61,328 nucleotides of DNA from a virus. Its lineage: Duplodnaviria; Heunggongvirae; Uroviricota; Caudoviricetes. The position numbers were made by a program, and so were the translations under genes. The DNA is taken from IMG/VR virus record IMGVR_UViG_3300042894_001948; one strand, given 5' to 3'. Position 1 is the first letter of the stretch, and each line of letters opens with the position of its first letter. Positions 34,231 to 57,121 of the stretch are shown here, in pieces. The notes beneath the pieces are model-generated. The model had not been told where the DNA came from and did no database searches. It saw only the letters and a program-made list of their open reading frames with translations.

Positions 34231-34319
34231 ATTAACACTTGACAAATATTATTTTTATGTTATAATATGCACAAGTTAACAATAATAAGCACATTAAATA
34301 TTTTAGTGTGTTTATTATT

Positions 34320-34666
34320 GTTGTAATTCCTTCAAAGTGACGGCATCAAACACTGGGGTTCGAAACCCCACATCTCCACCATAAAACACATTAGAGGTAT
34401 CGGAGTGGGGCAACAGCCGTAGACTTCCTGCCCCTCAAATGGGAAGTGATAGTGTGTTTTATAATGGGGATGAATTGGATTCGACTTGGTGAGATAATGG
34501 AGACGGCAACAGGTGAGGTGACTGTCCTAAACAGCGCAAAACTTATAGACGCAAAAGCATCTAAATTCGAGTATATGACAGTTGACTTCTCTTTGGAAGC
34601 AGCTGACATGGTAGCTTAAGAAACTACCGCTCTGGGGCATGTATGCCTTATTAACCAAAATACAAC
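34320..34666 (+). ncRNA. ssrA: Circularly permuted (two-piece) tmRNA
   Basis: Acceptor piece (T arm ggggttcgaaacccc, CATCTCC-ACCA ending 34381) precedes the coding piece (GGGGATG at 34466, G3:U70 pair, GGATTCGAC); tag ORF 34551-34619 AKASKFEYMTVDFSLEAADMVA; TTGACA/TATAAT promoter 34239-34266. Confidence 0.92.
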
Positions 34667-34667
34667 T

Positions 34668-34691
34668 AAGCACCCTTCGGGGTGCTTTTTT
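34668..34691. terminator. Bidirectional intrinsic terminator
   Basis: aagcaccc-ttcg-gggtgctttttt. Confidence 0.9.
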
Positions 34692-35883
34692 ATTGACCAT
34701 TTGATTTACTAAGGTTAATAAGTTTTTCATTCCAGTAATTGTAATAATTGATTAATTCTTGACTCATTATTTTTACAAATTTTTTATATACCGGGTATAA
34801 CTTTTTATCTTTAGGATGATTAAATGTCTTACTGAAATATTCAAATCTTCTAATTTTAATCGGGTGACCATAAACATCTTTTAACGCGGTTGGTCCATTA
34901 GACAAATTAGCAATAATCAATTTAAGTGCTTTTACTTGAGATTTTAAATGTGACACGTCTCTGCCATATTCATCAACCGAACCGCCCCATGCAAAATCTA
35001 AATGACGTATAACGCTAACTGCAGCGTCATGCGCATGTGCTGGTATTTCTTGTAACGACGAACTATATATTTTATAGTTTTCAGGCGACTTATCTAAATC
35101 TCTAATTGCATTATAAAACTTTTCTTGATTTGGCTCTACTTTACTTCTAAATTCAGTGCCTTGTTTAGTAACCAATTTGTGCTGTTTAGTATCTTTATCA
35201 AATACTCGTTTAGTTTTATATCTAGATTGAGGTGCGTGTTGTCTAATATGTACTAATTCGTGAACCATATTATCTATGTTTTTAGTGTCTAAGAAGAATT
35301 CAGCTAAACTAAAATCACCTAGTTTCAAATTTCTAAATGCAGGTTCGATTTGAAACATATCAGTTATCACAGGCACATATAGATTCTTTTGTTCAGCATT
35401 ACTCCATCCTCTGTTAACATCAGTCATTGCTTCTGTACTATATAACAAGTCTTTTAGCATATCTATATCTTGATGTTGGAAAGCATTCTTATCAGTTTCA
35501 TAGAATGTTACATAGTCATAACCAGCCGAGGCGAGGGCTCCTGGATTATTAGACTGAGGTAGAATTTGAATATGAGAAAAGTTTGTTCCACTTACATCCG
35601 CGCACACTTTAGCATATTTCTGCTGTATAACATAATGTGCTATCTTTACTATCTCTTCTAACATGTAAATAATATCACTAGGTTGCATTTTCTCATAAAA
35701 ACTACATATCCTGCCGTCGGACATATCTTTAAGGTATACTGCAATGGCATTAAATCCATTTATAGTTTCTAAGTTAAATGTAAGTCCTAACGGTTGTTCT
35801 AAAATATCATTTAACCCATTGTGCAATCCGTGTATCCAGTGAGCACCTGATATTGCTTCGCTTATAATTTCTTGTATTTTCAT
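34690..35883 (-). CDS. HExxH protein with MKIQEIISE leader
   Basis: MVHELVHIRQ; YSSSLQEIPAHAHD, similar to the motifs in 18265-19068. Confidence 0.65.
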   Translation of the reverse strand: MKIQEIISEAISGAHWIHGLHNGLNDILEQPLGLTFNLETINGFNAIAVYLKDMSDGRICSFYEKMQPSDIIYMLEEIVKIAHYVIQQKYAKVCADVSGTNFSHIQILPQSNNPGALASAGYDYVTFYETDKNAFQHQDIDMLKDLLYSTEAMTDVNRGWSNAEQKNLYVPVITDMFQIEPAFRNLKLGDFSLAEFFLDTKNIDNMVHELVHIRQHAPQSRYKTKRVFDKDTKQHKLVTKQGTEFRSKVEPNQEKFYNAIRDLDKSPENYKIYSSSLQEIPAHAHDAAVSVIRHLDFAWGGSVDEYGRDVSHLKSQVKALKLIIANLSNGPTALKDVYGHPIKIRRFEYFSKTFNHPKDKKLYPVYKKFVKIMSQELINYYNYWNEKLINLSKSNGQ

Positions 35884-54082: not shown

Positions 54083-54228
54083 TTGACTTATGCGCTAGAC
54101 CGTGTATAATATAGACTAAATTAATAACTGAGTAAACTACTCAGTTATTATAAATACACTTAACTCGAGTTGAAGTTTAACGGGCGTTAGACTTCGTTTT
54201 TTATTTTCCCTTGCTTAGGAGAATTTTT
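54083..54228 (+). promoter_or_regulatory. pmoC control region: early plus late promoter and hairpins
   Basis: TTGACT/TATAAT 54083-54110; IR taataactgagt/actcagttatta; TATAAATA 54149-54156; gaagtttaac/gttagacttc hairpin; AGGAGA SD. Confidence 0.7.
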
Positions 54229-55484
54229 ATGTCAGCTACAATTGAAACGGTAAAAGCAGAAGCTAAAGAAGCTTTACTTTTGAACAAACCAGCTATGCTC
54301 GCAGGTGCAGCACTATATATAGTGTTTTACGGGTGGGTTCGTTGGTATGAGGGTGTTTATGGATGGTCTGCTGGTTTAGACTCATTTGCACCAGAGTTTG
54401 AAACATATTGGATGAACTTCCTATATATTGAAATGGTACTAGAAGTTATTACTGCTTCAGTATTGTGGGGTTATATTTGGAAAACACGTGATCGCAAAGT
54501 AATGTCAATTACACCACGCGAGGAATTACGTCGCCACTTTACACACTGGATTTGGTTAGTAATGTATGGTATCGCAATTTATTATGGTGCTTCATACTTT
54601 ACGGAACAAGATGGTACATGGCATCAAACGATCGTTCGTGACACTGACTTTACACCAAGTCATGTTATTGAGTTTTATCTAAGTTATCCTATTTACATCA
54701 TCACAGGCGTTTCTGCATTCTTATATGCTAAAACACGCTTGCCTACCTACCAAAAAGGTTTGCCATTACAATACTTAGTATCAGTAATTGGACCTTTCAT
54801 GATTCTTCCAAACGTCGGCTTAAACGAATGGGGTCATACTTTCAACACAGGAAGCTCATTATAGCAATGTAATGATGAAAACTCTGTGAAAACGGTGAAC
54901 ATCCAGAACGGACAATACCGTGCCAAGCTTAGAAATAAGAAGGTGTAACGACTATCCTGAAAGGGAGTACACTCAAGTGAGTGGAAGCGCAGAGCAACCT
55001 ACATGGTTGATGAGATAGTCTGCTCTAACTGGGAACAGTTAGCAGTTCATAAGAGAACGGTATAAGCGTAACGAACTTATATGAACATAGGCTGGTTTAT
55101 GGAGGAGTTATTTGTCGCTTAAATAAGTGGGCGCGTTTACTAGTAATAGTAAAATGAAAACTTTGTGAAAACGGTGAACATCCAGAACGGACAATACCGT
55201 GCTAAGTCTCAAAAAAGAGAAAAGTGTAACGACTATCCCGAAAGGGAGTACACTCAAGTGAGTGGAAGCGCAAAGCAACTGTAGTAGTTGAAGAGATAGT
55301 CTAATCTATATAGGAATATATAGCAGTTCATAAGAGAACGGTATAAGAGTAACGAACTTATATGAATATAATGCCTTTACATTATGGGTTTGTATTTTTT
55401 GGATGGGCTGCACTTGGTGTATTAGGTGTAGTAAATATTGAAGTACAAGCAATATCTAAATTGTTGAAAAGCGATTTAGCTTAA
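54229..55484 (+). CDS. pmoC: Particulate methane monooxygenase subunit C, three exons: 54229-54842, 55092-55119, 55374-55484 (250 aa)
   Basis: Exons join in frame (614+28+111=753 nt) to give ...[32 protein letters not shown]...KSDLA; EQDGTWHQ and TPSH copper-site motifs present; Methylobacter-like sequence. Confidence 0.96.
54843..55091 (+). mobile_element. Group I intron 1 in pmoC (249 nt, no ORF)
   Basis: P1 CUUU|C with GGAAG including U54842:G54851; P3 ctctg/cagag; P7 gactat/atagtc; terminal G. Confidence 0.93.
55120..55373 (+). mobile_element. Group I intron 2 in pmoC (254 nt, no ORF)
   Basis: P1 CGCU|UA with UGGGCG including U55119:G55130; P3 ctttg/caaag (covaries with intron 1); P7 gactat/atagtc; terminal G. 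Confidence 0.93.
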
Positions 55485-55490
55485 TTGATT

Positions 55491-55522
55491 AGAAAGGGGA
55501 CCTAGGTCCCCTTTCTGCTTTT
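55491..55522. terminator. Bidirectional terminator between pmoC and the endonuclease
   Basis: agaaaggggacc-ta-ggtcccctttct; contains the endonuclease stop codon. Confidence 0.85.
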
Positions 55523-56257
55523 ACAATTATCAAAATGATATCTTGTCATATTGCCCCCGCTACCTTCTGTATTACAATGCGGACATGTTTTTATTTTCAT
55601 ATTCCGAGATTTTGTTATTCTTCCATTAGAATAAAACCGTGTAGTGTTATCTGGTAACATAAAATACTCTTTAATACCGTCATTGAACCATTGTTTTCCA
55701 ATTGAACGTCCTAACGCACGTTGGCGCATTCTTTCTAATTGTTCATCAGAATAAACACCAGTTTTACCTTTATTCCATACTTCCTGTACACCGGTTTTAC
55801 CTTTATTCCACGGTATTGATCCTTGTTTTGCCTGACTAATTTTACAACATGTTTCTTTAGATCTAGGCGGTTTTGATATTCCCTTAGTTTTTCCTGTTAA
55901 TGCTTTACTAATGTTATGTTTGGTAGTTGCTGTATGTTTATAACCAACAGTGCCTTCTCCACCAAGAGTCATATTATACCCATTACTATTGTTAACGTGA
56001 ATATAACTATTATATTCTATTATAAAATAGTTTTCCATTATAGATAGAGTATGTACTGCATCATATGATTGATACAGGATATTCCATTCAAAGTTATCCC
56101 ATCCGTATTTACGTATAGCATTATAAAAAACTTGATTTGAAGAAGTAGTACTATGATAACGGTGTTCATATTTTCGTTTTGGCCAGTTTGAATCAAATCC
56201 AATATACATTTTTCCATTTAGTATATTTGTAGCTGAGTAGATTGTATAAATATTCAT
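55502..56257 (-). mobile_element. Free-standing GIY-YIG homing endonuclease with NUMOD3 repeats
   Basis: IYTIYSATNILNGKMYIGF, YNMTLGGEG; C-terminal CPHC..TRYHFDNCK; leader copy D. Confidence 0.85.
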
Positions 56258-56452: not shown

Positions 56453-57121
56453 ATGAAAATATCAGAATTACTCAACGAAGCTCCCTTACCTCCGGATTGG
56501 GATAGCAATGTATTTACTCCGGATAACACTTACAAAAAAAGAATGGATTATACTGCAGCACGAGCTCAAAAGTTAGGCAGAGGCTCATCAAGGACTGCAT
56601 TTGAAATAGAATACCAAGGTAGGACTACTGTTCTTAAAGTTGCCCATAATATAAAAGGCATGGCACAAAACAAAGCAGAAGCAAATATATTAGATGATGG
56701 TTATGTGCAACAATTAGGTATTACTATTCCAATTATTGATTATGACGAAGCGCATGATGCTCCTGTTTGGATTCATATGGAAAAAGCACAAAAAGCTACT
56801 GAAAAACAATTGTGTAACCTAATGAAGTGTGGTACATTACAGTTATTAGTTGCAATGGCAGCAGCTAGTACCGATGCAAAAGGTCTGATATTAAGTCACA
56901 ATGAAGTTATCCGTGAATTACAATCAGAACGCTTTAATTACACAGACGAAGATGTTGAGTTATGCGAAGACTATGCACAGGCATTAACTGAGCTTGCAGT
57001 TAATTTTAATATTGGGTTATTTGACTTCGTAAGAACAGCTAATTGGGGTATATTTAACGGTAAACCAGTTGTAATTGATGTTGGTTATACAGATGCAGTG
57101 CATAGAGCACATTATATGTAA
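56453..57121 (+). CDS. Protein kinase-like protein with MKISELLNE leader
   Basis: LGRGSSRTAF, VLKVA, QNKAEA, NWG, VVIDVG; CTAAATA upstream. Confidence 0.7.
   Translation: MKISELLNEAPLPPDWDSNVFTPDNTYKKRMDYTAARAQKLGRGSSRTAFEIEYQGRTTVLKVAHNIKGMAQNKAEANILDDGYVQQLGITIPIIDYDEAHDAPVWIHMEKAQKATEKQLCNLMKCGTLQLLVAMAAASTDAKGLILSHNEVIRELQSERFNYTDEDVELCEDYAQALTELAVNFNIGLFDFVRTANWGIFNGKPVVIDVGYTDAVHRAHYM

Follow-up and report, generated by a model that had tools for sequence, protein, structure and literature searches.

Two ORF-less group I introns, set on either side of an exon of only 28 nt, interrupt pmoC, a methane-oxidation gene, in this lake phage, as our sequence analysis of the window (the whole 61,328-nt stretch of DNA that was analysed) confirmed. 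Comparison with other viral pmoC genes showed that recent history differs between the two introns, each of which also occurs alone. On balance we favor a reading in which the introns have moved laterally on separate paths, came to lie in tandem by recombination, exchange cores as modular elements and are mobilized by a GIY-YIG enzyme. We regard this joint reading as rather probable, and the order of events in it is one that we infer.

Structure of the intron pair

The host gene is pmoC (Pfam PF04896, E = 1.5e-99), and its surroundings in the window are typical large-phage genes, tRNAs and a tmRNA. Intron 1 (site 1; 54843-55091, plus strand) is 249 nt long and intron 2 (site 2; 55120-55373, plus strand) is 254 nt long, and neither contains an ORF. 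Both exceeded the Rfam gathering score of 50 for RF00028, with 67.3 and 80.4 bits, respectively. A U closes the exon before each intron and a G (omega-G) closes each intron.

The predicted helices of intron 1 include P1 (54839-54843/54850-54854), P3 (54882-54886/54990-54994) and P7 (54950-54954/55016-55020), together with P7.1, P7.2, P9, P9.1 and P9.2. In intron 2, P1 lies at 55116-55121/55128-55133, P3 at 55161-55165/55271-55275 and P7 at 55231-55235/55297-55301. All core helices could be drawn for both introns, P7.1 and P7.2 included. An initial sequence-only reading of this DNA had proposed that the 5' ends of the introns differ and that each is matched to its own exon end. This was borne out: P1 is formed by CUUUC and GGAAG in intron 1 and by CGCUUA and UGGGCG in intron 2, with a U.G pair at the splice site in each. 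The compensatory change that it had noted in P3 was also reproduced, CUCUG/CAGAG in intron 1 versus CUUUG/CAAAG in intron 2, with Watson-Crick pairs throughout.

When 13 relatives were compared, two-sided changes were observed in 40 of the 62 predicted pairs. P7 was invariant and paired in 90/90 cases; P3 was also paired in 90/90, with covariation in four of its five pairs. The P3-P7 core, P4/P6 and the G-binding P7, which are hallmarks of group I introns, were all found. The IA2 subgroup is marked by two hairpins, P7.1 and P7.2, between P7 and P3, by a short P5 and by the lack of P5abc, and this is the arrangement seen in both introns. IA2 has been reported to be heterogeneous (PMC11878797). 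Introns 1 and 2 are IA-type ribozymes of one sub-lineage that circulates in phages of gamma-type methanotrophs.

Globally the two introns are 82% identical (209/255), and they have exact runs of 39, 15, 33, 27 and 18 nt in common. Three blocks previously singled out as long identities between them sit inside the runs of 39, 33 and 27 nt. The shared runs also occur outside the twins: the 39-nt block recurs exactly in six introns of other phages, and each remaining block is exact in at least one intron of another phage. A custom covariance model detected no third intron in the window; in five related records the same model gave a single match, the site-D intron of G001.

Splicing and the CuD copper site

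Reconstruction of splicing gave three pmoC exons, all on the plus strand. Exon 1 (54229..54842, matching PF04896) comprises codons 1-204 and two bases of Phe205, and it carries the CuC ligands plus the CuD ligands Asn199 and His203. Exon 2 (55092..55119) runs over its 28 nt from the last base of Phe205 to Ala214 and is contiguous in intronless alleles. Exon 3 (55374..55484) encodes Pro215-Ala250 and the stop codon, and holds His217. The intron sites are uninterrupted in intronless phage alleles and in 80/80 loci from cellular genome assemblies. Alignment to the solved PmoC of M. capsulatus gave a numbering offset of 28, by which Asn199, His203 and His217 correspond to Asn227, His231 and His245. 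In the proposed active site these residues serve as CuD ligands (PMC12576850). By this alignment, the introns sit in the stretch of pmoC predicted to encode the CuD copper site.

Removal of both introns leaves a 753-nt frame encoding an intact PmoC of 250 aa. If intron 1 is kept, a stop is reached after seven extra residues; if intron 2 is kept, translation ends at Ala214. Omission of the 28-nt exon shifts the frame in the reconstruction, as had been expected from the sequence alone. His217 is missing from every mis-spliced product. Judging from the structures, each intron would excise itself with its own P1/P10 guide, and both would have to leave to give full PmoC with His217. Splicing would gate the counterpart of His245, a CuD ligand in the proposed active site.

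Chen et al. (2020) described 'fragmented' pmoC in the pmoC-phages TP6_1, BML_3, BML_4 and LR_6 (PMC7674155). In LR_6, a transcribed non-coding spacer separates a large N-terminal piece from a small C-terminal one; the word intron is never used in that study (PMC7674155). These four genes are like the present one in being gamma-type phage pmoC in pieces, and by analogy we infer that the published fragmented genes contain introns. Phage pmoC genes that have been scored as 'fragmented' are probably intact, a point of relevance to methane ecology. A literature search found no paper describing introns in phage pmoC.

According to the account in PMC10136302, which cites Landthaler and Shub (1999), introns 2 and 3 of the phage Twort gene orf142 are similar, IA2-type and separated by an exon of 23 nt, and exon skipping was shown in that gene. 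Going by that account, the twin layout is already known: in both phages, two highly similar introns surround a very short exon (28 nt here) within one phage gene. Unlike orf142, however, the host gene here is the metabolic, host-derived pmoC, lone alleles of each intron exist, and the introns were shown not to be sisters.

Skipping is probably minor in the present gene. Neither guide pairs with the exon end of the other site in splice register, and a joint ribozyme with its 5' half from intron 1 and its 3' half from intron 2 would have a C-A mismatch in P3. In engineered tandem introns, differentiated splice-site elements suppress skipping (PMC10136302). Selection against skipping as the cause of the P3 difference was considered but not adopted, as the lone intron of L016 has the same P3.

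Upstream of pmoC is a sigma-70-type promoter-like site (54083..54110, plus strand; TTGACT-16-TATAAT, 11/12 consensus matches), which is a consensus match only, such sites being no commoner in the region than in shuffled sequences. The pmoC leader that separates this site from the start codon has two strong hairpins (54110-54196), the second with a U run behind it; this could reflect attenuation or processing. Elsewhere in the window, the phage carries a permuted (two-piece) tmRNA gene (34289-34710).

Separate recent histories of introns 1 and 2

Relatives of the introns were drawn from 80 viral pmoC loci and further pattern matches, and intron trees were built on about 210 columns. Most viral pmoC alleles are intronless. 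Single-intron alleles were sought in related genomes and found for both sites. Site 1 alone is occupied in L003/L004, by an intron 99.2% identical to intron 1, and in L010/L014/L260, by introns 94-95% identical to it. Site 2 is occupied without site 1 in L016, by an intron 88% identical to intron 2 over the full length, and also in L040.

In the core trees intron 1 grouped with L003 while intron 2 was sister to L016 (98/94 to 100/99). A clade forcing introns 1 and 2 together was rejected (p-AU 4e-6 and 1.5e-4). Because each twin intron has nearer kin on other phages, the local duplication from which the sequence-only reading had derived the pair is refuted. Its notion of one intron family stood in that both belong to a homologous sub-lineage, which holds site-1 and most site-2 cores with 98/98 support; it failed in that the twins are not each other's closest relatives. 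A clade of site-1 introns only was not rejected (p-AU 0.07 in the larger tree).

The pmoC gene itself is sister to that of L001 (97% identity; 98/86), which has neither intron 1 nor intron 2, and it is not sister to that of the other twin carrier, L266 (p-AU 0.001). The two sister genes differ at 23/753 bases, with a cluster at the insertion sites. The pmoC tree required four changes per site.

Direct repeats of 157 and 66 nt, spaced 279-281 nt apart, run across the intron pair, as might be expected of a recent tandem duplication in this genome or of an assembly artefact. Such an origin is nevertheless hardly credible, given the nearer kin elsewhere for both copies and the tree tests that refute it. 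The frame is exactly restored by intron removal, and the differences between the twins are largely compensatory, falling in paired bases. L265/L266, two assemblies of another phage, independently show the same two sites around the same 28-nt exon, and their introns share 90.5% and 80% identity with the present introns 1 and 2. Misassembly is very unlikely because an independent phage has the same layout with different sequences and the twin differences are largely compensatory.

In the joint reading that we favor, the tandem would arise when both intron alleles meet on one pmoC by recombination between phages. Recombination would also bring short co-conversion of the exon bases that P1 needs.

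Different histories of cores and guides

Within one phage group, sequence comparison showed that the histories of cores and guides differ. The core of the polB intron L277 is identical to that of the pmoC site-1 intron L260 at 208/209 positions, while the 5' module of L277 is identical to that of L260 at just 18/36. L277 nests within the site-1 group in the core tree (98/93), and its 5' module is nearest that of the site-2 intron L016 (z = 6.5; site 1, about 3.1). The CUUU-guided cores were rejected as a monophyletic group (p-AU 0.035). As read from the sequence, L277 forms a six-pair P10 with its polB exon. The intron-bearing polB is 95% identical to the intact polB of the pmoC phage L011, the intronless counterpart of L010, with DNA-level identity of 94-97% on both flanks. 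pmoC was not found on five polB contigs, which are fragments.

A core difference of one base leaves no time for about 18 changes in the guide, and swapping of modules is therefore favored over rewriting of the guide. Guide rewriting, which the sequence-only reading had invoked for the twins, found little encouragement in their own 5' modules either: at z about 2.5-2.7 these are no closer than the modules of unrelated introns, and the clearest case, polB, looks like a module swap. In our preferred reading, the 5' module (P1 guide, P10 and P2) would stay with its site, and the catalytic core (P3-P9) would pass between resident introns by gene conversion. Core exchange of this kind could explain the twins without any guide rewriting, and gene conversion of a resident intron appears to be the simplest reading of the polB chimera. 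We do not claim conversion between the two twins, because the within-core test for mosaicism or recombination was not significant (p 0.18). A search for the same guide on an older, different core (site-1 or polB introns) found none, and scans for further carriers of the site-1 P2 or P9 returned known loci only.

Bryk and Belfort reportedly described in 1990 domain shuffling between the T4 td and sunY introns that yielded chimeric ribozymes under laboratory selection. The present case would be similar in that related introns of one phage recombine to give chimeric ribozymes. Unlike the T4 experiment, it is a natural snapshot, with 99.5% core identity across two genes.

The polB carriers (L334/L277 and L088:11130-11400) read TCG CTA at the insertion site, while all conspecific intronless alleles read AGT TTG. 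This serine codon-family switch supplies the exon strand of P1. Because the TCG CTA target is absent from all conspecific intronless alleles, transfer in polB appears to have taken place at the DNA level.

These observations bear on a spread in which introns reverse-splice into new RNA sites and are then reverse transcribed; to reverse splicing the sequence-only reading had also pointed. It is true that three genes have a CGCU-guided relative at a CGCU exon end, namely pmoC (site 2), polB and a structural gene of L137, and the 5' module of the L137 intron is 84% like that of L016. On the other hand, site 1 is hard to account for by this pathway, since its target differs and neither guide pairs with the exon end of the other site; the polB target came with its intron at the DNA level; and direct experimental support for the pathway is lacking (PMC3984707). 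We therefore consider reverse splicing improbable as the source of these introns. It has likewise been held responsible for related introns at different rDNA sites (PMC1299323). The present introns are like those in having related cores at different sites, but here the exon target travels with the intron, which indicates DNA-level transfer. On the wider question of how group I introns come to occupy new sites, this family provides an unusually recent natural comparison: within one phage group, cores that are one base apart stand under unrelated guides in two genes. It also cautions against taking the likeness of cores at separate sites as proof of duplication or reverse splicing.

The L137 intron (L137:6750-7011, minus strand), closely related to intron 2 and sharing its CGCU guide, interrupts the end of a putative virion structural gene. 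It is followed by a free-standing GIY-YIG-like gene.

It could also be speculated that novel sites are colonised by chimeras, a crossover between tandem twins excising a portable DNA circle that would carry the end of exon 2, the intron 2 guide module and the intron 1 core. The polB intron has such a make-up: a site-2-like guide, a 99.5% site-1 core and the 5' exon 5-mer TCGCT, which matches the end of pmoC exon 2 exactly and replaces the resident serine-leucine bases. If this were true, the twins would be a source of 'target + guide + core' units and would open a way into new genes at the DNA level, with no need for reverse splicing or guide mutation. However, we find this doubtful. The six-pair P10 already tuned to polB suggests an older polB intron whose core was converted, and related polB alleles with TCN serine codons exist, which also favors an older polB intron.

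A DNA polymerase gene of the cultured Acinetobacter phage PP841130 is split by an unannotated group I intron of 81% identity (L307:1186-1420). GenBank labels the split polymerase 'hypothetical protein'.

Relative age of the two sites

Site-2 introns have cores 64-89% alike and are hosted by pmoC genes down to 74% amino-acid identity. Site-1 introns have cores 89-99% alike and are confined to alleles of at least 90% identity. Site 2 is probably older than site 1 because of the wider spread and greater divergence of its introns. The nearest outside relatives, L040c and L137, carry a CGCU (site-2-type) guide, although the deeper branches are weak. If one site begot the other, these comparisons suggest that the direction was from site 2 to site 1, i.e. 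upstream. The sequence-only reading, in which the intron was retargeted downstream, thus had the direction reversed, the downstream site being the older by spread and divergence.

An ancient duplication would have copied a site-2 intron 28 nt upstream in an ancestral phage, with rewriting of the copy's guide and separate spread of both introns afterwards; it amounts to the sequence-only proposal set further back in time and turned round in direction. Such an event concerns only how site 1 originated, and lateral assembly at a later stage is compatible with it. That site-1 and most site-2 cores form one clade (98/98) with CGCU-guided introns as its nearest, if weakly placed, outsiders would fit such an event. 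So would the L266 twins, which as sisters were not rejected (p-AU 0.18-0.38), and the finding of no intron of the sub-lineage in cellular genomes (0 intron-pattern matches). However, 5' modules from the two sites are not notably alike (z 2.5-4.6, much as against the unrelated site-D and site-E introns), and a CGCU guide cannot pair with a CUUU end, which would leave a fresh copy unspliced and pmoC broken. The polB chimera also shows that a shared core is possible without duplication and rewriting. We regard ancient duplication as possible though rather unlikely. An old duplication inside pmoC stays a fair rival for the origin of site 1 because the same guide on an older core was not found and core mosaicism was non-significant.

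A neighboring endonuclease gene and exon co-conversion

Downstream of pmoC and convergent on it is a free-standing gene for a GIY-YIG-like/NUMOD3 homing endonuclease (55502..56257, minus strand, 251 aa; PHROG homing endonuclease E = 9.4e-28, GIY-YIG E = 4.1e-12, NUMOD3). Its stop codon sits inside a perfect 26-nt palindrome that follows pmoC (55491..55516; inverted self-match, query 1263-1288). The palindrome is probably a terminator shared by the two genes; a terminator scan did not call it.

An endonuclease gene was found just downstream of pmoC in 7/8 alleles with 3' introns versus 2/20 without (Fisher p = 2e-4, counted on gamma-type alleles that were dereplicated by hand, kinship ignored). 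The endonuclease family of the window adjoins three of the four site-2 alleles, and other families go with site 1 alone and with sites C, D and E. Endonuclease and intron need not occur together: L016 has intron 2 without an adjoining endonuclease, and L020/L041/L070 have an endonuclease without an intron.

Exon tracts were also seen next to the introns. Between L010 and the intronless L011 there is one difference in nt 1-611 and 20 in nt 612-753, the tract of differences beginning 3 nt before the intron at a base that P1 needs. Among gamma-type phage alleles, GTC GCT at site 2 is confined to intron carriers, and it occurred in 0/80 loci from cellular genome assemblies. By analogy with published cases, homing with exon co-conversion would be expected to leave such a pattern (PMC2988022), as would collaborative homing (PMC3984707). 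Genomic features of collaborative homing are present here, with ORF-less introns beside a free-standing endonuclease gene, co-inheritance and exon co-conversion.

Cyanophage S-PM2, in which a psbA intron is accompanied by the free-standing F-CphI, is a known example of collaborative homing (PMC3984707, PMC2988022, PMC6083498), and the pmoC introns resemble it in their type of mobility. Unlike F-CphI, which is of the Endo VII type, the enzyme here is GIY-YIG-like, and unlike in S-PM2, different phages fill the slot with at least four endonuclease types, and introns occupy seven sites. In the reading that we favor, the free-standing GIY-YIG gene probably moves the introns, and from its slot behind pmoC it would probably supply the DNA break.

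The at least four endonuclease genes that alternate behind pmoC are exemplified by L001, L003, L010 and L039. Three of the types share a C-terminal RYHF motif, and types tend to match particular intron sites. Beyond the endonuclease gene of the window lies a 222-aa ORF (56453-57121; phrog_4301, unknown function) that is absent at this position from the near relatives L001 and L003.

Distribution of pmoC introns

Introns were found in gamma-type pmoC alleles only and in none of 37 alpha-type loci. Cellular genome assemblies yielded none in their 80 closest pmoC loci, in a search that ranks contiguous genes first, and an intron pattern search of cellular genomes gave 0 matches. pmoC was not found in the GenBank phage collection.

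Seven intron sites were recorded in pmoC, six in codons 202-225 and one at codon 45, in gamma-type alleles throughout. Further sites are represented by L001:4658-4915, L039:4612-5165 and L042:4130-4382. The pmoC of IMGVR_UViG_3300047476_001516 (L040:1540-2620) has four group I introns with exons of 13, 22 and 30 nt between them; three of these introns have a core of a second class and one has a core of the class studied here. The first (L040:1540-1790, at a Gly|His site) seems to end in A if the frame is restored, which points to either a sequencing error or a rare omega-A intron.
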